Positions 5,001-41,392 of a DNA stretch of 64,000 nt are shown here, piece after piece. A model generated the notes under the pieces. That model was not told where the DNA came from, made no database searches, and saw nothing but the letters and a program-made list of their open reading frames with translations. The translations under genes and the position numbers were made by a program. This DNA comes from an uncultured Candidatus Saccharibacteria bacterium (GTDB taxonomy: Bacteria > Patescibacteriota > Saccharimonadia > Saccharimonadales > SZUA-47). The stretch is taken from contig CAZHXX010000001.1 in assembly GCA_964536485.1 (NCBI GenBank), forward strand, positions 149,643 through 213,642. Reading direction: 5' to 3'. How positions within the stretch are numbered: the first letter of the stretch is position 1; the number at the start of each line of letters is the position of its first letter.

Positions 5001-5855
5001 TTAGACAAGTTCGAGAGCTGAGCGGATGCGCTCTACAGACTCAGCAGGACGCATATCGTCGAACCACATGACCCGCCACCCTTGTTGTTCGGCGGCCATA
5101 AGGTTTGTTCTGCTGTCGTCGATAAATAGAATTTCTTCTGGAGGAACGCCTGAGCGGTCAGTCGCTACCGAGTAGATATGAGGCTCTGGCTTAATGGTAC
5201 CTACCTGAGAGGAGTCAATGATACTATCATAGGCAAGATTGGGCAGGAGCCCGCCGTAAAGCAATTTCTGGATAAGCCCAGGCATGATATTAGAGAGTAG
5301 GCCGATTTTATAATGTTGCGAAATCCAGCGAGCAAGTGTGTGCATCTCGGTAATTGGCTCTACTGCATCGAGATAGTATTCTTCCCACTTTATGGAGCGT
5401 ACACCTATCCGTTCAGCAAATTGTTGGTTGAATTCCTCGAGGCTTATTTCGCCACGACACGCAACGTCATTAAGATGCCAAAAGGCTGTTTCTATTGTTT
5501 CACTTGAAACGCCTGTTTCATGGGATATTTTGGTGAAGGCTGCATGAAAGAAATGCACCATACAGCCGTTAATATCGACATACACAAACGAAACGCCTGA
5601 TTTGCTTGTTCGTTTCTGGACCGCCGGTGGGGTGGCAAGCGATAAGTGACCTAGCAGTGTATCAAGCGATACGCCCAGGACCGATGCAATTCGCGCAACG
5701 GTGAATACCGATGGCGTCTTGATCGCTCCTCGCTCGATTTTTGCTAAGGTCGAATAAGACAAATCTGCCCTAACACACAGTTCTTGTTGTGTCAGAGCAG
5801 CAGTTTGCCGTGCTGTTTGTATAGCTTTTCCCAAAGCTAGCTCCACCCGATCCAT
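5001..5855 (-). CDS. XRE-family HTH domain fused to a HAD-like hydrolase domain
   Basis: N-terminus LTQQELCVRADLSYSTLAKIERG (Cro/C1 HTH). C-terminal half has HAD motifs (VYVDINGCM, LLSN, K...FIDD). Start set at M35 (5855; M31 at 5867 is also possible) because the upstream extension overlaps a small ORF. Confidence 0.7.
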   Translation of the reverse strand: MDRVELALGKAIQTARQTAALTQQELCVRADLSYSTLAKIERGAIKTPSVFTVARIASVLGVSLDTLLGHLSLATPPAVQKRTSKSGVSFVYVDINGCMVHFFHAAFTKISHETGVSSETIETAFWHLNDVACRGEISLEEFNQQFAERIGVRSIKWEEYYLDAVEPITEMHTLARWISQHYKIGLLSNIMPGLIQKLLYGGLLPNLAYDSIIDSSQVGTIKPEPHIYSVATDRSGVPPEEILFIDDSRTNLMAAEQQGWRVMWFDDMRPAESVERIRSALELV

Positions 5856-5910
5856 TAGTACTATCATACCAGCTGGAGCGTAAAAATGGAATAAAAATGG
5901 TACGAAAAGG

Positions 5911-6084
5911 CTAGACAGGGATAAACGACAGAATGATGAGCATAAGAATGAAGGCAAGAACGCCCACTACTACGCCACCACCGACTGACTTCTGCGTGTT
6001 GCCGCCTGTACGCTTGTAGAACTTATTTGCAACCCAGGCACCAGAGCCTAGCGCAACTAAAAAAGCAATAAGTGTGTTTCCCAT
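5911..6084 (-). CDS. small two-TM membrane protein (57 aa), below the ORF-track cutoff
   Basis: Hand translation: MGNTLIAFLVALGSGAWVANKFYKRTGGNTQKSVGGGVVVGVLAFILMLIILSFIPV*. An AGGAA lies just upstream of the ATG. Confidence 0.45.
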   Translation of the reverse strand: MGNTLIAFLVALGSGAWVANKFYKRTGGNTQKSVGGGVVVGVLAFILMLIILSFIPV

Positions 6085-8376: not shown

Positions 8377-8453
8377 TGGTACACCCGATACGATTTGAAC
8401 GTACGACCTCCTGTACCGCAAACAGACGCTCTATCCAGCTGAGCTACGGGTGC
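8377..8453 (-). tRNA. tRNA-Arg, anticodon GCG by my fold, CCA encoded
   Basis: Hand-folded cloverleaf: GCACCCG-TA-GCTC-AGCTGGATA-GAGC-G-TCTGT-TTGCGGT-ACAGG-AGGTC-GTACG-TTCAAAT-CGTAT-CGGGTGT-ACCA. Confidence 0.85.
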
Positions 8454-8499
8454 TTTTCGCTGTGAATTTCACACAGAACAGAGGTAATTCTAGCATATC

Positions 8500-8510
8500 T
8501 GGTATATAAT
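8500..8510 (+). promoter_or_regulatory. candidate -10 region (TGGTATATAAT) driving element B / tRNA-Ser
   Basis: TATAAT at 8505-8510, 10 nt upstream of the GGAGAGATGG at 8521. Confidence 0.45.
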
Positions 8511-8520
8511 TACCAGTGCT

Positions 8521-8652
8521 GGAGAGATGGCCGAGTTGGTCGAAGGTGAGAAATGCCCATGAGCGCATTTCGCAAGACAGGCAACACTTGAAAACTTGTT
8601 TTCAAAGCTGTTGTACTGTGGGGTCGCCGAAGGTGACCACGACGTAGTCGTG
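8521..8652 (+). repeat. structured element copy B (starts with a copy of the tRNA-Ser 5' end, then the three-hairpin core)
   Basis: 8521-8548 matches 8702-8729 at 26 of 28 positions. Core 8538-8638 is homologous to copy A. An extra hairpin CACGAC-GTA-GTCGTG lies at 8638-8652. Confidence 0.6.
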
Positions 8653-8701
8653 CGCCATCAAGGCTGTGCCAGCAAAATAATGAGTTAAAATAACTTTAAG
8701 T

Positions 8702-8794
8702 GGAGAGATGGCCGAGTTGGTTGAAGGCGCACGACTCGAAATCGTGTAAGTATGGCAACATGCTTCGAGGGTTCGAATCCCTCTCTCTCCGCCA
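8702..8794 (+). tRNA. tRNA-Ser (anticodon CGA), class II long variable arm, CCA encoded
   Basis: GGAGAGA-TG-GCC...GGC-G-CACGA-CTCGAAA-TCGTG-(variable arm)-GAGGG-TTCGAAT-CCCTC-TCTCTCC-GCCA. Confidence 0.92.
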
Positions 8795-8805
8795 AAATAA
8801 GGATG

Positions 8806-8829
8806 CCGTCATTTATGACGGTATTTTTA
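8806..8829 (+). terminator. rho-independent terminator after tRNA-Ser(CGA)
   Basis: CCGTCA-TTTA-TGACGG followed by TATTTTTAT. Confidence 0.6.
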
Positions 8830-8835
8830 TTCTGA

Positions 8836-8956
8836 GTGCTAGGATGATTCGAACGACGATGTCCGGTGGACATCGGCCGCCCTTTAGCCCCGAGTGGGGT
8901 TGTCTCTAGCGAAAGTAATTTTCTCTTTCGCGGGGACAAGGTCGAATCCCTCTCTC
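8836..8956 (+). other. hairpin-rich spacer bounded by tRNA-Ser T-arm-derived fragments (element C)
   Basis: GATTCGAAC at 8846-8854 is an inverted T-arm-like piece. Hairpins: CGATGTCC-GGT-GGACATCG and GCGAAAG...CTTTCGC. GGTCGAATCCCTCTCTC at 8940-8956 copies the tRNA-Ser 3' region with one T missing. Confidence 0.4.
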
Positions 8957-8980
8957 AAGATGACAAGCTAATGAATTCTT

Positions 8981-9955
8981 CTAATCTTCTCGTGTTGCCG
9001 ATGTATCTGGGTGCTTTAATCCTTCAACGTAATTACTCACATTTATAGCTGCTGGCTCGCCATGGAGCAAGTAGTATTCTTGATTATCGTGATGAGTTGC
9101 TCCAGATATGAGCAACCATGTTCTGTCTTCATCATACTCAATAGAGAAGAACATGCGGTATCCGCCGGGGCCGTTATCGCGTGACTTGTATATTATTTTG
9201 CCATCTTGAGTTTTGCAATCTACAGCAGCTGAGTTAAAGTTTTTTAAAGAGGCTTTTATGCCATCATTTTTTATCATTTCAAAAAGATTTGATAGCTCTG
9301 CTTTTATTACTCTTGATCCACGGTCATTTTCTGAAGTGATATCCGTTATGTCTCCAGTGGTATCAATTATCGCAATATCTCTTTCATGTTTTCCTCTCTC
9401 ACTTGGCCCATCGTTAACAACAAATACCCTTGTCCCATTTGCCATTTCTTCCACATGAGCATTTTGCTCAGCTACTTTGTCGAGCATTTTGAAAGTTACT
9501 GATTCGTCTGAAACTTTATGGTCAGTATCTTTGATGTTTTTTGCTGAAGTCTCAAGCCAGACTCTTGAAATTGGGTCACCTTCTTCTGAAGCAGTGATGA
9601 TACCTTCAAGCTGGATAAGGTTAGTTGTTCTTTCTGCTCCTCGTTCTATTGCAACAGGAATTGGGCACACACCGGCAAGCTTACATGCCTTGCAACCCAA
9701 AAAATCGATAATTGGTTCTGTATCACCTTGTTCTTTGTATCTGCTGTATTCACCCGATATTTGAGCTAGTATTTCTAATGCTCCTGATTGGTCAGGGAGA
9801 AAGTCTATCGTTTGTTCAGTCGTTGTTAATTGGTCCGCAAGGGCGATATCTGGCAGAACGCGTGTTCTAACGTAGGGATTGTCTACCGGACAGTCAAGAG
9901 GTACATCTGTTTCGATCATTGTTTGTGTTTTACTTTTATGATATAATTCTAGCAT
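8981..9955 (-). CDS. hypothetical protein (324 aa); C-terminus weakly RelE/ParE-like
   Basis: AT-rich ORF. GCKACKLAGVC Cys cluster. C-terminal GYRMFFSIEYDEDRTWLLISGATHHDN resembles the RelE/ParE toxin core pattern (weak, by eye). Confidence 0.6.
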   Translation of the reverse strand: MLELYHKSKTQTMIETDVPLDCPVDNPYVRTRVLPDIALADQLTTTEQTIDFLPDQSGALEILAQISGEYSRYKEQGDTEPIIDFLGCKACKLAGVCPIPVAIERGAERTTNLIQLEGIITASEEGDPISRVWLETSAKNIKDTDHKVSDESVTFKMLDKVAEQNAHVEEMANGTRVFVVNDGPSERGKHERDIAIIDTTGDITDITSENDRGSRVIKAELSNLFEMIKNDGIKASLKNFNSAAVDCKTQDGKIIYKSRDNGPGGYRMFFSIEYDEDRTWLLISGATHHDNQEYYLLHGEPAAINVSNYVEGLKHPDTSATRED

Positions 9956-9987
9956 AAAAGTGCTAATTAGTCAATAAAAGGATATTC

Positions 9988-10185
9988 ATGATAGACGGTT
10001 TAGAAGCTCAACATGAAGGCAGAATAGTTTCTTCTGGTGTAGTTGAACATGTAAAGGGATTCATAAATCATCTTGTTAGAGATCTTGATAATATAGCTAC
10101 TGCTGAAACAACAGACTCTTTTGTAGCAGATAAGTCTGATAAAAACCAGCGCAACCAGCCTTCTTCAGACGCGACTGTTCTTTAA
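9988..10185 (+). CDS. hypothetical small protein (65 aa)
   Basis: Divergent from 8981..9955. AAAGGA lies upstream of the ATG. Confidence 0.35.
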   Translation: MIDGLEAQHEGRIVSSGVVEHVKGFINHLVRDLDNIATAETTDSFVADKSDKNQRNQPSSDATVL

Positions 10186-10709
10186 AACCGCAGACGGCGT
10201 GAGGCGCGATCAATAGCGTCTAGCTCGCGCTGTTCGTGTGGCAAGAAATTACTTATCATTGTGGCTATTTTGTCTTCTTCTTCGGGAGAAAAATAGATAA
10301 TTATGGCCGGCTTATACTTGCTTAAAGGTTTAAGCCATATGCTGTCGATTGCGCCCTCTTCAACAATAGAAAATGACCGGAAATCAGCGTAGCTATATAG
10401 TCTACCGTCGACTTTAAGCCCTTTTGCGGATAGCTCGTAGCGTTTTGAGCCGGGCTGGCGTGAGGCAAAAAATCCAGCACAAAGCGACACTGTTAAGATT
10501 GCGACAGAGGTAAGGACATCGCGGTTTAAGAGGTAGACGACGGCAGTAATAAGCAAAGAAGCGCCAAAGAGTGCCATATACCAACTAACGGGTTTTTCAT
10601 GGGCGATATACTCGGATGCTTCCCACGTAATAACTTCTTGGGGGAGAGTCATGTCCTGTTCGGGAATATCTGCTCCGTTATAGCTCCAAGGAGTTTGCTC
10701 ATCTTCCAT
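10182..10709 (-). CDS. membrane protein with C-terminal PH-like (bPH/YdbS-type) region
   Basis: Two TM helices, then YELSAKGLKVDGRLYSYADFRSFSIVEE. Start placed at M16 (MEDEQTPW); 10736 or 10754 are also possible. Confidence 0.6.
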   Translation of the reverse strand: MEDEQTPWSYNGADIPEQDMTLPQEVITWEASEYIAHEKPVSWYMALFGASLLITAVVYLLNRDVLTSVAILTVSLCAGFFASRQPGSKRYELSAKGLKVDGRLYSYADFRSFSIVEEGAIDSIWLKPLSKYKPAIIIYFSPEEEDKIATMISNFLPHEQRELDAIDRASRRLRF

Positions 10710-10802
10710 AAGCGTATTGTACACGAAATAATCCATAGATACATAACACTTCAAAAATACACGGATATAAGGTACAATTTATGAAGTAAAATCTAAAAGC
10801 GT

Positions 10803-10895
10803 GGAGAGATACCCAAGTGGCTGAAGGGGACGGTTTGCTAAATCGTTAGTGGGGCGAAAGTTCCAGCGAGGGTTCGAATCCCTCTCTCTCCGCCA
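10803..10895 (+). tRNA. tRNA-Ser (anticodon GCT), class II, CCA encoded
   Basis: GGAGAGA-TA-CCC...GGG-G-ACGGT-TTGCTAA-ATCGT-(variable arm)-GAGGG-TTCGAAT-CCCTC-TCTCTCC-GCCA. Confidence 0.92.
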
Positions 10896-35893: not shown

Positions 35894-36472
35894 ATGATTA
35901 AAGCCATTGTCTTCGACTGTTTTGGCGTTATTGTAGCCGATACCACAGAAGCTACATACAAGTTGCTTGGTGGTGACAGCGAAAAGGACAAAGAGTTTCT
36001 AAGAGATATTTATCACAAAAGTAGCAGTGGGCTTATTCCTGCTGCCTCCCCATTTATTGCAGAAAGACTTGGTGTCCCAATTGAGACTTGGGAGCAAGAG
36101 TTGAAGAACGGCAGGACAATAAACGAAGAATTGCTCCTGTATATAAAAACGCTCAAAAAAAGCTATAAAGTAGGTATGCTGTCCAATGTAAGTTCTTTGG
36201 GACTACAACGATTTATTACTCAAGAGCGTCTTGCTGAATATTTTGAAACAGTCGTTGAGTCACATGTCATAGGTTTTGCTAAACCAGAAGCAAGAGCATA
36301 TGAAATTGTCGCCGAGAGTCTTAACGTGCGCTTGGATGAATGCATTTTTACGGATGATAGAGAGGAATATATTGAAGGTGCTCAACATGTAGGCATGAAG
36401 ACGATTTTGTTCACGAATACGGGACAATTTAAGAGGGACCTTGAGGCTTTGTTGAGCAAGGAGAAAGAGTAG
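35894..36472 (+). CDS. HAD-family hydrolase (paralog 1, DCFGV type)
   Basis: MIKAIVFDCFGVIV, MLSNV, KPE...FTDDREEYIEGAQHVGMKTILF. TACAAT at 35882-35887. Confidence 0.85.
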   Translation: MIKAIVFDCFGVIVADTTEATYKLLGGDSEKDKEFLRDIYHKSSSGLIPAASPFIAERLGVPIETWEQELKNGRTINEELLLYIKTLKKSYKVGMLSNVSSLGLQRFITQERLAEYFETVVESHVIGFAKPEARAYEIVAESLNVRLDECIFTDDREEYIEGAQHVGMKTILFTNTGQFKRDLEALLSKEKE

Positions 36473-37110
36473 TGGGTATACCCGAACAAAAAACCATGTG
36501 GGATAAAATACATGCAGAGCGTGAAGACGAGTTCCTCTCAAACGAGCCGAACGAATTTGCTCAAAAGCTAAGTAAGAAACTCAAGAAAAATGCTCTCTTA
36601 CTAGAGCTAGGATGTGGTAAAGGAAGAGATGCGCGATATTTTTCTCAGAAGGGGCTCACTGTTTTAGCGACAGACTTTTCTGAAGTGGCTGTAGATAAAA
36701 ATCGATCTAACTCTCAAAATAGTTCCCTGGCCTTTGAAAAGCTTGATATGCGACATAAGTTTCCTTATGTAAGTAAAAGATTTGATGTGGTGTACTCACA
36801 TCTAGCGCTTCATTATTACACCGACGAGGAGACGAAGGGTATATTCAACGAAATACATAGAGTTTTAAAAGAGGGAGGCCTCTTTGCTTTCGTGTGTAAA
36901 ACATATGATAAAAATCGCATGGAGAATGCACAAGAAATAGAAAAATCAGTATTCTTGGACAAGAATAATCATGTTCTACATGCTTTTTCTAAGGAGTTTG
37001 TTGAGCTACTAGTCTCTGATTTATTTAAAATTGAATCCATGGTAGAAGAAGAAAGAATTTACTATGGCAAACCATCCATAATGCTTGAATGTATAGCGAG
37101 AAAAATATGA
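36472..37110 (+). CDS. class I SAM-dependent methyltransferase
   Basis: LLELGCGKGRDARYF (motif I), DVVYSHLALHY. GTG at 36472, or possibly ATG at 36496. Confidence 0.8.
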   Translation: MGIPEQKTMWDKIHAEREDEFLSNEPNEFAQKLSKKLKKNALLLELGCGKGRDARYFSQKGLTVLATDFSEVAVDKNRSNSQNSSLAFEKLDMRHKFPYVSKRFDVVYSHLALHYYTDEETKGIFNEIHRVLKEGGLFAFVCKTYDKNRMENAQEIEKSVFLDKNNHVLHAFSKEFVELLVSDLFKIESMVEEERIYYGKPSIMLECIARKI

Positions 37111-37688
37111 TTAAAGCCATTATCTTCGATTGTTTTGGAGTCGTAGTTTCTGATACGTTGCAGGCTGCATATGAAACATTGGGTGGAGACTTTGAAAAAG
37201 ACCTGCCATTTATACGTGAAGTTTTGGCTGCAACAGACCGTGGGGAAGTGTACCGTTCCTACCAACCTATAGCAGAGCATTTAGGAGTGACAGTAGATAC
37301 GTGGGTGGACGCACTTGCTTCGGGACGCAAAATAAACATGCAACTCCTAGAATACGTAAAAGAATTAGGTACAAAATACAAAGTTGGCATGCTGTCGAAC
37401 GTGGGTAAGGGAAGACTCCCTGAGTTGTTTGGAGAAGGATTCTTGGAAGGATATTTTGATGTGGTGGTGGCATCCGGTGACATTGGGTTTGCCAAGCCCC
37501 AAGCACGCGCTTACGAATATGTAGCTGACCAAATTGGGGTTCGCTTAGACGAATGCGTGTTTACGGATGATAGAGAAGAATATATTGAGGGTGCGCAACA
37601 CGTTGGCATGAAGACGATTTTGTTCACTGGTACAGAGAAGTTTAAGGCTGAGCTTGAAGAAATGCTTCTTTTGGATAAAAGTAAGTAA
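37107..37688 (+). CDS. HAD-family hydrolase (paralog 2)
   Basis: MIKAIIFDCFGVVV. ATGA overlap with the methyltransferase stop. The 3' third is near-identical at nucleotide level to paralog 1. Confidence 0.85.
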   Translation: MIKAIIFDCFGVVVSDTLQAAYETLGGDFEKDLPFIREVLAATDRGEVYRSYQPIAEHLGVTVDTWVDALASGRKINMQLLEYVKELGTKYKVGMLSNVGKGRLPELFGEGFLEGYFDVVVASGDIGFAKPQARAYEYVADQIGVRLDECVFTDDREEYIEGAQHVGMKTILFTGTEKFKAELEEMLLLDKSK

Positions 37689-37693
37689 AATTT

Positions 37694-37721
37694 TTGCAAC
37701 TTTTGTTAGTCAAATTACAAT
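37694..37721 (+). promoter_or_regulatory. candidate sigma-70 promoter for unit L
   Basis: TTGCAA (37694-37699), 16-nt spacer, TACAAT (37716-37721). Confidence 0.5.
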
Positions 37722-37936
37722 GGGCTTTTCGCGCCCATACCCACGCCATACTTTTGACTACAGTCTCAAAAGTATGCAAAAAGTCCGCAGCATGCAAGAA
37801 AAGTACTATTGCCCCTCTCTTAAAATGTAGTGTTCCTGCGGAACGCAAGCGACCACAATAGTTACTGAAAAGGAGTATTGTGGTTGGTCCTCGGAAGTGA
37901 TTCACTACATTTTGAGAGAGGGGCATCGGTTTTCTT
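37720..37936 (+). ncRNA. candidate structured RNA, unit L (unclassified)
   Basis: Hairpins at 37720-37738 and 37747-37776. 22-bp helix 37811-37832/37903-37924 enclosing the hairpin 37852-37884. T-run at 37930-37936. Homologous to unit R with compensatory changes. Confidence 0.55.
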
Positions 37937-37982
37937 GCGGTGCTGGAGAGCTACGGAGCTACTGTAGCCACACCAGCCTTTA

Positions 37983-38216
37983 CCCTAAAAACCGAGAAAA
38001 TGAGACAGAAGACAAAGGAGTCATTGCCGAGGACATGGCAACATACTCTTAACAAATAACTATGTTGCCCGACCGTAAGGGAGTTCCGCAGGCACGTTTG
38101 TTCTTGTGTTCTATTTTCATCGTTTGTTTTTGGGGAGGCTGCGGGGTTTTTGCTTACTTTTGCACCTGCAGGCAAAAGTAAGGCTGGGTAAAGGGCAGGC
38201 ATCTCCCTTTTAGTGA
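37983..38216 (-). ncRNA. candidate structured RNA, unit R (diverged inverted paralog of L)
   Basis: Same element order on the minus strand: 38210-38190, 38182-38153, helix 38122-38097/38016-37993, hairpin 38069-38037, T-run (fw A-run 37987-37991). Confidence 0.5.
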
Positions 38217-38257
38217 ATCAGGCAGGAACTGGTATATTTCGGTGATACAATCTAGTA

Positions 38258-38824
38258 ATGATTAAAGCCATTATCTTCGACTGTTTTGGGGTCCTAGTCA
38301 CCAGCTCTTACGAACCATTCAAACAAAAATATTTCCACGGTGACGCAGAACTTATTAGAAAATTTATCGAGATAGAAGACCTCTCAAGTAGGGGAGAGAT
38401 AACTCTTGAAGAAGCGGAGCAAGGATTTGCTGATTTGGCGGGAATTTCTCTTGAGCAGTGTGCTCACGAGCTGGCGCAAAATCCGCGCAACGAGAGCCTG
38501 CTTGCATATATTCCAGAATCGTTAAAGGGCGTATATAAAATTGGATTCCTTTCAAACGTTGCGAAAGACCGCACGCATGAGCTGTTTACAGATACCGATA
38601 TTGCGCTGTTTGATGATATGGTCTTGTCGTTTCAGGTAGGCATGGCAAAGCCAGAACCAGAGATTTTCCGACTGTCTGCTCAGCGTTTGGGTGTTCAACC
38701 TGAAGAATGCGTGTTTTTGGATGATTTGAGCAAATATCTCGTTGGCGCAGAAGAAGCGGGCATGCACACTATTTTGTTCAAAAATACCGAGCAGTTTAAG
38801 AGGGATTTAGCAAAACTGCTATAG
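38258..38824 (+). CDS. HAD-family hydrolase (paralog 3)
   Basis: MIKAIIFDCFGVLV, FLSNV, KPE...FLDD. TACAAT at 38246-38251. Confidence 0.85.
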   Translation: MIKAIIFDCFGVLVTSSYEPFKQKYFHGDAELIRKFIEIEDLSSRGEITLEEAEQGFADLAGISLEQCAHELAQNPRNESLLAYIPESLKGVYKIGFLSNVAKDRTHELFTDTDIALFDDMVLSFQVGMAKPEPEIFRLSAQRLGVQPEECVFLDDLSKYLVGAEEAGMHTILFKNTEQFKRDLAKLL

Positions 38825-39458: not shown

Positions 39459-40109
39459 ATGCTAGACAATCTTGAGAGGCTGTCACCACCAAGACGTAGA
39501 AGACTATGGCCGTATGCAATGCTTGCTATCGCCGCAGCTGGAGGTACATTTTATTTAGGTAAAAAAGATACCGGTGAGGTAGAGCAGAATGTTCCAGCTA
39601 CTTCAACTACTGCGGTATTCGAGCTAGACACACAGACATTACCTCCGACTCTACCACCAGGTGAGGTGGCAACAACTATTGCAGAGGGAACTATACTCCC
39701 CATAGATCACCACCCTAGCACACTACCGAGCGATACGATTGCCCCAACAATAACTGTCCAAACAGCGGGCAGTACAGAGGCTGTAACGACCGAAGCGCAC
39801 GATCACCCCGCGCCTGCGATTACCATTGGGCAAGAGACTGCTCCGCAAGTTGCAACGCCCGCACCAGCAGATACGCATCAGCACCCCGCGCCTGTTATTC
39901 CTGTGGCTGAACAACCAGTAACAGTGACTACTGCAGTAGCGCACGATCACCCTGCGCCTGTAGTTGTCGTAACACCAGGTACTCCAGCTCCCACGACTCT
40001 AGCCCCTGTAGAGACAGCACCGGCAACACTTGCACCTGTGGGAACTCCAGAGACTGTCCCGCCAACGCTCGCACCACCCGTAGGAACAATACTGGCCCCG
40101 TCAGGGTAA
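39459..40109 (+). CDS. membrane-anchored Pro/Thr-rich protein with three H(D/Q)HPAP repeats
   Basis: N-terminal TM (LWPYAMLAIAAAGGTFYL). Repeats AHDHPAPAI, THQHPAPVI and AHDHPAPVV. Confidence 0.65.
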   Translation: MLDNLERLSPPRRRRLWPYAMLAIAAAGGTFYLGKKDTGEVEQNVPATSTTAVFELDTQTLPPTLPPGEVATTIAEGTILPIDHHPSTLPSDTIAPTITVQTAGSTEAVTTEAHDHPAPAITIGQETAPQVATPAPADTHQHPAPVIPVAEQPVTVTTAVAHDHPAPVVVVTPGTPAPTTLAPVETAPATLAPVGTPETVPPTLAPPVGTILAPSG

Positions 40110-40138
40110 AATAAGAGAGAAGAAGGAGTGTTTAGACT

Positions 40139-41392
40139 ATGAAACGAAAAATCTGTTCAGCACTGTTGGTCGTATTGGTGTCTGCATTTTCTTTTGCGTC
40201 GGGAAGTGCGCAAACAATAAGTAGTGGAACAAGTACGATGATGACGAGTTACCAAGTGACTACTGTTGGATCAACCAACTGGGCTACAACCTTAACTGCC
40301 CCGGCAGGGACGACAGTCTCTTGGCTGTTAAGCTATCACAATATGGGGACAGCAAATGTTGGAAAGCTTATTATTTCTTCGTCGCTGGTCTCTAACCAGA
40401 CGCTTGTCCCTGGAAGTGTGATGTGGTTTGACGGAAACTTTCCAAATGGGTACAAACTGAGCGACACTGGCCTATTTGATGCAGGAGTCGATGTTGGGGG
40501 TGTGGCAGCAGGAACGAATGGCTTCATACGGTACCGAACTCAATCGGTAGAAGCGACGCCTTGTGGCATAAAGAGTGAATCAGCTGGTTATTTTGATGCG
40601 GATGGTGTGAAGAGTACCTATAAGGCAACTTTTTCAACGCCGGCTTGCATAGAACCAATTGCCTCATCGACAGTGCAAGTACCACCAACGACGGTAACAA
40701 CAGCCACTGCCACTCCTGTGGCAACAGCTGATACGACAACTCACGACCACACAACTACGACAGATCAGCAAACGACCACTACAAGCTCGTCTGCATCATC
40801 AGTAACAAGTACCAGCGGTAGCGTTACTGCTACGGCAACGCCTGTAACTACAACAGCAACTTCCTCGCCAACAACTGCAACAGTTCATGAAGGACACACT
40901 ACCAGTACACCTGCTAGTACTGATATCGTTAGTAGCGCAGTAGTTACTTCAACTAACGTGGTGCCTGCAACTGATAGTACGTCTCTAGCTCAAACAACCA
41001 ACGAGTCTGAAAGCACCGTACACGATCATAGTGTTACGTCACCTCAAGTTACGACTACCGCGCCGGTTGTCGCACAGGCAACGCAAGTAGCCACTCTAAC
41101 AGCAACTGAAGCCTCTACTCACACAAATCATGATGTGAGCACGCAGACAGCAGCAGCAACACAGGTGGCAGGCGCAAGTAATGAACCTGCTGCTCATAGT
41201 GACCACACCACCACTACTTCACCTACTGTAACTACTAGCGAATCAACCGAACATGCAGGCCACACTATCCCTGCTACTGGTGGTAATCCTTTATGGTTGA
41301 TGAGCGGGGCACTCGCACTTGGCTATATTGGAAAACTTCTCTTTCTAAAGCGAAGAATGCGAACCCAGCCAGTAATGATCTATTGGCAATAA
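40139..41392 (+). CDS. secreted cell-wall-anchored protein (LPXTG-like IPATG sorting signal) with Thr/Ser-rich His-pair repeats
   Basis: Signal peptide, beta-rich N-domain, repeats HDH/HEGH/HDH/HTNH/HSDH/HAGH. IPATG at 41267-41281, then a hydrophobic stretch and KRRMR. Confidence 0.75.
   Translation: MKRKICSALLVVLVSAFSFASGSAQTISSGTSTMMTSYQVTTVGSTNWATTLTAPAGTTVSWLLSYHNMGTANVGKLIISSSLVSNQTLVPGSVMWFDGNFPNGYKLSDTGLFDAGVDVGGVAAGTNGFIRYRTQSVEATPCGIKSESAGYFDADGVKSTYKATFSTPACIEPIASSTVQVPPTTVTTATATPVATADTTTHDHTTTTDQQTTTTSSSASSVTSTSGSVTATATPVTTTATSSPTTATVHEGHTTSTPASTDIVSSAVVTSTNVVPATDSTSLAQTTNESESTVHDHSVTSPQVTTTAPVVAQATQVATLTATEASTHTNHDVSTQTAAATQVAGASNEPAAHSDHTTTTSPTVTTSESTEHAGHTIPATGGNPLWLMSGALALGYIGKLLFLKRRMRTQPVMIYWQ

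Follow-up and report, generated by a model that had tools for sequence, protein, structure and literature searches.

A previously undescribed family of multi-copy structured intergenic elements restricted to Saccharibacteria

Dispersed non-coding elements with defined folds are known from several systems, and IS200/IS605 elements, BOX-type repeats, REPINs, retrons, and CsrB serve for comparison below. Pneumococcal BOX (boxA/B/C), RUP, Neisseria Correia, enterobacterial ERIC, and Rickettsia palindromic elements (RPE) are dispersed, intergenic, found in either orientation, and folded into stable hairpins; among them, BOX is built of modules and RPE hairpins have undergone compensatory change, and the mobilizing enzyme is unknown or acts in trans. 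The HEARO/OMEGA loci of IS200/IS605 (HEARO, Rfam RF02033) have a 200- to 300-nt multi-helix scaffold with a conserved junction, occur in several copies, may lack the protein gene, and have neither terminal inverted repeats (TIR) nor target-site duplications (TSD). Here, we analyzed a 64,000-nt stretch of contig CAZHXX010000001.1 from an uncultured Candidatus Saccharibacteria bacterium (the window, in whose coordinates positions are given), where two units, which we call L and R, lie in the ~570-bp gap between two HAD-family genes. We find that both are independent members of a previously undescribed multi-copy family of structured elements restricted to Saccharibacteria. In general kind these are structured dispersed non-coding elements, and the family itself is new. 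The family shares the features listed above and most resembles, in likely function, orphan HEARO/omega-RNA scaffolds or modular repeats (BOX, Correia, and RPE), but the testable defining features of both were not found. Correia, RUP, and ERIC are mostly simple long hairpins with TIR, whereas this family is without TIR and TSD, and it differs from BOX-type repeats by a three-way junction, ~35 invariant nucleotides, a GCUAC tail, strict back-to-back pairing, and a low copy number (single digits per genome).

The gap extends from the stop codon of one HAD gene (37688) to the start of the next (38258). Unit L, a whole class-A element, spans 37717–37963 on the plus strand (profile match E = 4e-58) and unit R, also a whole class-A element, spans 37964–38213 on the minus strand (E = 8.5e-55), both strands being those assigned by a first-pass annotation of this DNA; unit boundaries were set by comparing copies located in different contexts. 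That annotation had described two diverged copies of one unit, with helices kept while their sequences change, and all of its hairpins, conserved blocks, and coordinates are present in the sequence. L can be aligned with the reverse complement of R over its whole length with 75% column identity. Two conserved blocks have exactly two occurrences each in the 64 kb, CCTGCGGAAC at 37835–37844 (plus) and 38083–38092 (minus), and GTCCTCGG at 37887–37894 (plus) and 38027–38034 (minus). When the window was searched with a family profile, L and R were the sole copies.

Homologs were sought with the pattern CCGCAG-N30-60-CCTGCGGAAC-N30-60-GTCCTCGG in one genome per species, covering 185,579 species. This yielded 79 stretches, of which ~17 are clear homologs from Saccharibacteria-labelled metagenome-assembled genomes (MAGs), save one from a MAG labelled only "bacterium"; the remaining stretches come from unrelated genomes, largely actinomycetes, and are not matched by the family profile. 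The pattern scan of metagenome contigs added ~10 further copies (~90 of the 106 matches being unrelated conserved coding sequences that fit the pattern by chance), and scans of viral contigs recovered no family member. From the first alignment we built a family profile, with which nhmmer detected ~33 copies in the fetched loci, 27 of them distinct and all from Saccharibacteria MAGs or metagenomes. The elements are ~245–260 nt long, and each sampled genome holds several: at least seven in MAG CAYNWE (on three contigs), at least four in JAGONL, and three in L060 (loci and copies elsewhere are cited by such handles). No similarity to plasmids or phages emerged from a blastn search in distant mode. 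In the source genome, public short-read (Logan) contigs end at 37769, within P2 of L (see below), and start at 38174, within P2 of R, as would be expected where an assembler runs into a repeat; the P2–linker segment is evidently repeated elsewhere in that genome.

No family in Rfam 15 explains the units. A cmscan of 37400–38500 against Rfam 15 at E up to 10 returned four noise matches far below gathering scores, among them a plant miRNA and a baculovirus element; eight loci with relatives gave no match at E up to 1, and at gathering threshold the whole window yielded only three tRNAs. The families covered include HEARO, IS605-orfB, raiA, and ribozymes, as well as tmRNA, RNase P, SRP, 6S, T-box, and group I/II introns, to which the first-pass annotation could not match the region either. 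We also rejected two more specific candidates, 1) the P/Q elements of a group I intron, which the CCGCAGC and UGCGG motifs recall, since their order is reversed and there is no Rfam match, and 2) a conserved small open reading frame (ORF) or leader peptide at the Shine–Dalgarno-like AAGGAG of the P4 loop, since neither frames nor starts are conserved between P4 types. Full-text literature searches found no published description of the family. In a survey that reported 224 motifs, lysM-TM7 was the sole TM7 motif (PMC5737381).

As a single strand, the element has two 5' hairpins (P1 and P2), an A-rich linker, and one long helix (P3) closed by CAGC/GCUG. At the end of the long helix is a three-way junction made of a core helix (CCUGCGGA/UCCUCGG), a mini-hairpin (CGCAAGCG), and the P4 hairpin, and a tail of GCUAC repeats comes last. 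The minimum free energy of L is −102.2 kcal/mol (z = −9.7 against dinucleotide shuffles), compared with −97.7 on the minus strand, while R gives −70.8 kcal/mol with a marginal z of −2.4 in its first-pass orientation (minus) and −92.3 kcal/mol (z = −3.9) on the plus strand. That the fold is more than chance follows from the ~33 homologous copies and their strong covariation. In a consensus fold obtained with RNAalifold from 17 copies, 25 of the 45 predicted pairs carry one or more compensatory double changes. In a 27-copy alignment (A3), standard pairs fill 87.9% of cells as against 70.1% in column shuffles (0 of 500 reach the observed value) and 33–48% in controls with partners slid; the copies are mutually related, so that the shuffle control overstates significance, a weakness of which the slid controls are free. 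Changes on both sides affect 42 of the 66 pairs, and the covariation score is 0.43, versus 0.13 for shuffled columns and 0.07–0.12 with partners slid by one to three columns.

Covariation extends over most of the fold. Both-sided changes were seen in 7 of 12 pairs of P2, where 90.7% of cells pair, and in 19 of 20 pairs of the upper long helix; the lower long helix covaries as well. Next to the core helix, pair 136–208 is without exception either U-A (12 copies) or G-C (15), the mini-hairpin has two pairs, and the CAGC/GCUG closure shows one compensatory change from A-U to G-C (copy L093a). The first-pass claim about L and R, made from two units, is thus borne out across the family by covariation in P2, P3, and P4, and the compensatory substitutions expected of a conserved structured non-coding RNA in general are present. 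The further suggestion that linker CCGCAG pairs with internal CUGCGG as a pseudoknot is unsupported: both motifs are near-invariant and so beyond the reach of covariation, the pairing is disrupted in copy L011c and has no equivalent in class-B relatives (see below), and the A to G change in L093a is offset by a change in the closing helix (GCUG to GCCG) and by none in CUGCGG. Together, the findings show a fold and ~35 junction nucleotides preserved by selection, with helix sequences free to drift through compensatory substitutions.

The same evidence bears on whether the gap holds the remains of a gene (decayed or frameshifted) or an inverted repeat that arose by chance. Only two ORFs of at least 60 aa lie wholly within the gap, both on the minus strand, and there is none on the plus strand; minus-strand ORFs at 37642–37926 and 37951–38202 (94 and 83 aa) overlap the units, which is what such a reading would have in its favor. 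However, none of eight ORFs in the gap has a Pfam match at E <0.03, the two arms of each helix change together in a way that no reading frame would tolerate, and 33 homologous copies lie in unrelated contexts. We therefore rule this explanation out as almost certainly wrong, in agreement with the first-pass view that the gap is not a decayed gene.

Within L, the order on the plus strand is P1, P2, linker, long helix with its three-way junction, and GCTAC tail. Sequence and fold both define P1 (37720–37738, ATGGGC-TTTTCGC-GCCCAT, then ACCC) and P2 (37747–37776, 11 bp, loop CTACAGTC). The linker CAAAAAGTCCGCAGC (37777–37791) is near-invariant in the 27 copies, and its last four bases, CAGC, begin the closing helix. 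The 5' strand of the lower long helix (37788–37809, CAGC-AT-GCAAGAAAA...) covaries with its partner at 37926–37945, and is followed by the 5' arm of the upper helix (37810–37832), a variable module defined by fold and covariation, in which the 22 nt at 37811–37832 have their reverse complement at 37903–37924 with one mismatch (a U-G pair). The 5' side of the core (37833–37851) contains the invariant block TTCCTGCGGAAC, which pairs with TCCTCGGAA, and the mini-hairpin. Then come the P4 module (37852–37884), 100% identical to P4 of L032b in another MAG, and the 3' side of the core (37885–37902, TGGTCCTCGGAAGTGATT), which alignment and covariation show to include a conserved bulge of 6–7 nt. The 3' strand of the long helix (37903–37945) consists of the upper arm and TCGGTTTTCTTGCGGTGCTG, and the tail (37946–37963), recognized by comparing copies, reads GAGA-GCTAC-GGA-GCTAC-T. 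In the lower helix, UUUUCUUGC pairs with GCAAGAAAA (AAGAAAA/UUUUCUU), closed by CAGC (37788–37791) and GCUG (37942–37945), and these pairs, including those of the T-run, covary. The first-pass annotation had each unit end in a helix, CGG, and a T-run; this T-run (37930–37933) proves to be the 3' strand of the lower helix, and since it is base-paired with AAGAAAA, there is no intrinsic terminator in that orientation. In the opposite orientation, a U5 tract lies 2–3 nt past the long helix, as a resemblance to a terminator only.

R has the same parts on the minus strand. P1 (38190–38210, AAAGGG-AGATGCCTG-CCCTTT) and P2 (38153–38182) were again defined by sequence and fold. The linker and 5' strand of the long helix occupy 38096–38152 (CAAAAACCCCGCAGC in the minus read, GCTGCGGGGTTTTTG in the plus read), and alignment places the 5' side of the core (GTGCCTGCGGAAC and a variant mini-hairpin region, TCCCTTACGGTCG) at 38070–38095 and its 3' side (GTCCTCGGCAATGACT, minus read) at 38019–38036, on either side of the P4 module (38037–38069), which is 92% identical to P4 of L054a. 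The 3' strand of the long helix (37974–38018) comprises the upper arm (37996–38018), the lower arm, and the closing GCTG (37977–37974). The tail GCTAC (37968–37964) is separated by 1 nt from the last GCTAC of L. Across the family, the tail beyond GCUG measures 15–25 nt with one to three G(C/U)UAC at 8- to 9-nt spacing, and in ~22 of 30 copies a G(C/T)TAC motif, often repeated, lies 2–6 nt past the closing GCTG. The palindrome GCTAC-T-GTAGC is found in the window at the L/R junction only. With 68 occurrences against 49 expected, GCTAC shows no enrichment in the rest of the window, and we rejected it as a general genomic signal.

We found five abutting pairs of units, about four of them independent (the window, L011, L060, and L025/L042, the last joining a class-A to a class-B unit). 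All are inverted, tail to tail, and joined at their GCTAC ends, and none of the copies found forms an abutting head-to-tail or head-to-head pair. Looser pairs occur as well: in L032 two units point head-inward across a gene, and L054 and L162 have the tail-to-tail geometry with one gene in between. The single, accessory-looking genes so bracketed, with tails inward, are an alpha/beta hydrolase in L054 (2620–3231) and a 252-aa secreted/membrane protein in L162 (283–1041). By our own arithmetic, one geometry out of four possible in ~4 independent pairs has a probability of (1/4)^4, or ~0.004, and chance is an unlikely cause. This geometry points to targeting of insertion or conversion to the GCTAC end, or else to an advantage of the pair itself. 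Partners are 24–78% identical per segment (window and L060), and L and R, at 38–77%, are each nearer to copies in other genomes, which argues that the pair is not a local inverted duplication. REPIN/RAYT systems, in which RAYT transposases mobilize REP doublets, are similar in their recurrent inverted doublets, occasional singles, intergenic location, and enzyme in trans, but REPINs consist of palindromic 20- to 40-nt REP units with near-identical halves, whereas the halves here are structured, ~250 nt long, and usually of different module lineages.

Segment-by-segment identities between copies reveal differing histories for P1, P2, P3 (both arms jointly), and P4. P1 is a separately exchangeable module with at least eight sequence types across copies; L011a and L054b, for example, share only 32% in P1 and 100% in the P3 arms, P4, and core. 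L011b and L032a are 87–98% identical in the P3 arms and 58% in P4, L025 and L042 have an identical P2, 93–98% in P3, and 50% in P4, and window L matches L032b, from a different MAG, at 100% in P4 and 39–51% in the P3 arms. The exchange points lie in invariant junction sequences. In L011a, the two strands of P2 come from different lineages and no longer pair fully, which looks like a recent exchange.

Copies lie in unrelated intergenic sites in either orientation, at random with respect to flanking genes, and the immediate neighbors scanned are unrelated, housekeeping, or without Pfam match. An all-versus-all comparison of the ORFs around all copies found no recurrent protein family, and a Pfam scan found no transposase, reverse transcriptase (RT), TnpA, TnpB, IscB, or nuclease among the scanned neighbors and ~30 window ORFs. 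The reading we prefer, to which we give about an even chance, is that of a structured, recombining element of intergenic regions, acting as RNA or single-stranded DNA (ssDNA) in concert with a protein encoded elsewhere and maintained as a nonautonomous repeat. Its active form would be a folded single strand, RNA in the likeliest case though perhaps ssDNA, and the protein would recognize the invariant junction and the repeated YUAC(A/U)G/GCUAC motifs of the P2 loop, P4 loop, and tail. The family would persist by self-propagation or recombination and not as a classical single-copy RNA gene, and new or converted copies may land preferentially at the GCTAC end of a resident copy, which would produce pairs such as L/R.

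Several observations weigh against this reading. First, the core is invariant in every copy, which is no less compatible with a function for the host than with a selfish one. Second, no candidate partner protein was found within ~8 kb around each copy or in the one 64-kb window. Third, the marks of transposition are lacking: there are no TSD, the longest word shared by the flanks averaging 5.2 nt versus 5.0 nt in shuffled sequence, and no TIR, terminal inverted matches being 4–7 nt in 15 single copies, so that the TIR and TSD of a classical (DDE-derived) miniature inverted-repeat transposable element were absent from the single copies examined. Fourth, L014/L114 and L018, in different MAGs, carry the element at what appears to be one shared site, 5' of a common tRNA promoter region, which implies that copies can be long-lived. 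Fifth, what the window has in addition to its relatives at this locus includes a whole HAD gene (see below), so there is no clean empty site. Sixth, no conserved promoter or terminator could be defined on either strand of the copies. Last, the strand signals conflict: P4, its base pair (CGRYC/GRYUG with G·U), and the lower helix (GG opposite UU) favor the sense strand, that is, the first-pass orientation, and the variable upper helix favors the other.

This conflict is the oddest feature of the family, the strand-discordant wobble pattern being an unusual signal. In the first-pass orientation, the variable upper helix has 67 A·C cells versus 17 G·U, which become 67 G·U and 17 A·C on the complement. 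In 23 of 27 copies and 17 of 20 independent modules, the complement gives the more stable helix (mean −26.6 versus −19.2 kcal/mol; Wilcoxon p = 3e-5), and class B has the same antisense bias (16 versus 5); window L is among three exceptions, with a slightly better fold on the plus strand. We rejected a strand-wide mutational bias as the cause of the A·C cells, as that strand is rich in G+T in the variable P4 loop. Also on the complementary strand, the mini-hairpin has a CUUG tetraloop (CGCUUGCG), CUUG being a stable tetraloop family. Sense-strand evidence comes mostly from conserved, not independently varying, positions, and we gave it less weight. The convergent pair of the first-pass annotation presupposes L on the plus and R on the minus strand, and under an antisense reading L and R would be divergent. 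Judged from wobble pairing, the polarity of the units points both ways, the variable helix favoring the opposite strand and the other helices leaning to the first-pass one.

One way to accommodate both signals would be an element selected on two strands, with the junction and P4 under selection on one and the variable 20- to 25-bp helix on its complement. We consider this improbable. If true, it would make these modular ~250-nt units a novel type of genetic element for the Candidate Phyla Radiation, and would fit an RNA-to-cDNA or other two-strand cycle run by an enzyme encoded elsewhere, or a process in which the variable helix gives rise to a small nucleic acid that confers specificity, and either would be a previously unknown mobile or nucleic acid–guided system in Saccharibacteria. 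A variable helix serving as guide or spacer was rejected, its arms having no match in the rest of the window and one L arm (the sole arm tried) none in viral contigs. A more specific version, a retroelement-like cycle in which the sense strand is transcribed, with P1, P2, the lower helix, and P4 functioning as RNA, and a cDNA of the long-helix region is the functional hairpin, like the msd stem of a retron, would explain the wobble pairs on the opposite strand of the upper helix, and it draws on the robustness of that discordance in class A and class B, the absence of a general A+C bias on the sense strand, and the sense leaning of P4 and the lower helix. We regard it as very unlikely all the same. 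Retrons resemble these elements in having small 5' hairpins followed by a long variable hairpin, and an msd stem would show complement-strand selection, but the RT gene of a retron lies directly beside its non-coding RNA gene and no RT adjoins the copies among the scanned neighbors. In addition, the CAGC/GCUG helix encloses the long-helix domain only, leaving P1 and P2 outside, so that there is no a1/a2 pairing of the kind that encloses msr, and the evidence for the sense strand comes largely from conserved positions. The conserved three-way junction within the long hairpin and the multiple dispersed copies further set the family apart from retrons. TIGR-Tas arrays of Candidate Phyla Radiation bacteria, which are tandem 36-nt units beside a Nop-domain gene, are not comparable in form to the Saccharibacteria units (PMC12045711).

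Terminator-like features of the complementary strand suggest another possibility, that the element is a cis-acting barrier to transcription (a bidirectional terminator, an insulator, or an RNA-stabilizing 3' structure) in the spacers of a densely packed genome, with L/R blocking read-through both ways. Many copies begin 10–80 nt past a stop codon (L starts 29 nt past that of the upstream HAD gene), the opposite strand has GG-N2-UUUUU after the long helix (GCUGCGGGGUUUUUGC in R), and P1 is terminator-like on that strand in about a third of copies, as in R, where TTTT follows P1 on the plus strand; an inverted pair would act in both directions. However, a terminator needs no three-way junction, ~35 invariant nucleotides, mini-hairpin, or GCUAC tail, and about half of the copies are located where gene starts diverge on both sides or point away from the closest gene end. 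Local transcription does not dictate the strand either, since the direction favored by the variable helix agrees with that of the genes in 10 copies and disagrees in 6, and the members of inverted pairs each favor their own antisense. A barrier role is thus doubtful, with little probability in our estimate.

Rather more credit, though still short of likely, goes to the idea that the copies are ordinary genes for trans-acting small RNAs (sRNAs), a set of paralogs (compare RsmX/Y/Z or Qrr1–5) with their own promoters that act as scaffolds or sponges for an RNA-binding protein and have spread by duplication and gene conversion without mobility. The core is intact in every copy, each copy's own helices stay paired, the YUAC(A/U)G/GCUAC motif is repeated in loops and tail, and the element is kept at an orthologous site in two MAGs. 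The window encodes RNase J, against which the 5' hairpin P1 would shield an RNA. Boxes resembling a −10 element lie within ~12 nt 5' of P1, in AT-rich flanks, in at least 15 of 26 copies; L013 has a perfect TTGACA-N18-TAACAT, and directly 5' of L we find the TTGCAA-N16-TACAAT noted in the first-pass annotation (37694–37721, plus strand, 9 of 12 matches), a promoter-like site of a quality expected 1.3 times by chance in the region. Against these points stand others: the box of L extends into the beginning of P1, for several copies, L among them, such boxes would place the transcript start within P1, and AT-rich flanks yield such boxes by chance; none of the copies compared has a 3' terminator in this orientation; and the wobble pattern favors the other strand. 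At least seven copies would be unusual for a genome of roughly 1 Mb, which is typical of Saccharibacteria, and the strict tail-to-tail abutment of unrelated members in four independent cases would go unexplained. The sponge sRNAs CsrB and RsmX-Z are also encoded by several paralogs and repeat a short motif in loops and a single-stranded tail, but here the motif is GCUAC/YUACWG with a putative binding protein, and the junction and long helix are far more elaborate than a sponge needs.

The likeness to IS200/IS605 had been noted at first pass, where the two hairpin-rich units were offered as possible ends of one such element. That proposal does not hold, since each unit is complete and also occurs singly, L and R are of different module lineages, and no transposase, TnpB, or IscB is among the scanned neighbors. 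A distinct form of it is that each unit is a nonautonomous IS200/IS605-type element (PATE), an omega-RNA-like scaffold for a TnpB, IscB, or IsrB encoded elsewhere, with GCTAC as cleavage or target site and the adjoining flank as guide. In its size, complex conserved scaffold, presence in multiple ORF-less copies, and lack of TIR and TSD, the family does resemble orphan HEARO/omega-RNA loci; one of its ends has a subterminal hairpin (P1) and the opposite end a short conserved motif, and in one subfamily (L097, L106, L113, and L162) GCTACAG flanks both ends. Yet there is no HEARO or IS605-orfB Rfam match even at E up to 10, and no TnpA, TnpB, or IscB among the scanned neighbors, which include the housekeeping genes of the 64-kb window. 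Unlike those of IS200/IS605, the two ends lack similar hairpins and share only 4–7 nt, P1 and the GCTAC tail being unrelated. No variable guide was identified, the scaffold adjoining a conserved motif instead (on its 5' side in antisense polarity), and no replication-strand bias was found: GC skew on the element strand, a weak proxy in loci of at most 8 kb, was positive about as often as negative in 20 copies. We hold this origin to be quite improbable.

Beyond class A, the family belongs to a wider superfamily. Class-B repeats of ~280 nt were found in L025 (4790–5075, minus), L042 (1908–2207, minus), L018 (2061–2346, minus), and L008 (2–185, plus). On their own strand they have a P1 type shared with class A, a U/A-rich P2, the linker CAAAGAAA, a long helix closed by CACCC/GGGUG, a mini-hairpin in the context GAACGCAAGCGUCC, P4, and a GCUAC tail. 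Their core helix is GCAUUAAG/CUUAAUGC in place of CCUGCGGA/UCCUCGG, a swap that amounts to superfamily-level covariation in favor of the core helix. L060 also carries a hybrid (940–1165, plus) with the P2, linker, and closing helix of class A around a reverse-oriented class-B-like interior, and L021 and L036 hold a third, shorter variant that retains CCGCAGC, CCUGCGGAAC, GUCCUCGG, and a GGCUAC tail. A subfamily comprising L097, L106, L113, L162, and L182 (several from sample Ga0316190) has (T)AGCTACAG in two places, directly 5' of a conserved TTTCGCG and in the 3' tail; with TAGCTA being self-complementary, the ends of these copies could pair. L106 has two tandem 5' modules. At L014 (~210–330), L114, and L018, a conserved segment, GGGGGAGACGAGGGGTTGTTTTTAACACCTTAGGATGTTATTAT, lies downstream of the unit tail, with a tRNA-like sequence next in L014; it is probably a strong promoter that marks an orthologous site keeping the element.

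Saccharibacteria are ultra-small episymbionts with reduced genomes, in which repeated non-coding DNA is unlikely to persist without a reason, and to our knowledge few non-coding RNAs have been described in the phylum. If the element acts as an RNA, it would be a new candidate ribonucleoprotein component for Saccharibacteria. If, as our preferred reading has it, it is a mobile or recombining repeat, it would mark sites of accessory-gene gain (an extra HAD paralog here, a hydrolase or a secreted protein elsewhere), would explain the contig breaks in short-read assemblies of the source genome, and would be a concrete case of module shuffling between structured elements.

The units are flanked, outside the element, by two HAD-family hydrolase genes on the plus strand, HAD-B (37107–37688; Pfam HAD_2 and Hydrolase) and HAD-C (38258–38824; identified by Pfam scan). 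At the orthologous locus, relatives L192–L196 have HAD–methyltransferase–HAD and lack both HAD-B and the units, so that the window has HAD-B and two units extra, between the methyltransferase and the last HAD gene. HAD-B is 92% identical at the DNA level to the relatives' first HAD gene, with neighboring genes at ~73%. The HAD locus has thus been rearranged. Over 35894–38824, the window thus has three HAD-family paralogs, with an S-adenosylmethionine-dependent methyltransferase between the first two, where relatives have two HAD genes. All of these HAD genes are conserved in their first 50–60 nt, and such stretches may be recombination points.

The window itself is core chromosome, encoding PolA, DnaG, RpoD, ArgRS, ValRS, PNPase, RNase J, and FtsK, and its sole Rfam/ARAGORN matches are three tRNA genes at 8377–10895 (Arg-GCG, Ser-CGA, and Ser-GCT). 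Downstream of HAD-C, at 39459–41392, are two adjoining ORFs of 216 and 417 aa that are rich in Thr, Pro, Ala, and Val and contain low-complexity repeats; G+C is raised (up to 0.58) and GC skew reversed over this segment, the 417-aa ORF has a hydrophobic segment at its end, and the two are probably secreted or surface proteins. Finally, an unusual fusion of an N-terminal Cro/C1-type helix-turn-helix with a HAD-hydrolase domain is encoded at 5001–5957 on the minus strand.

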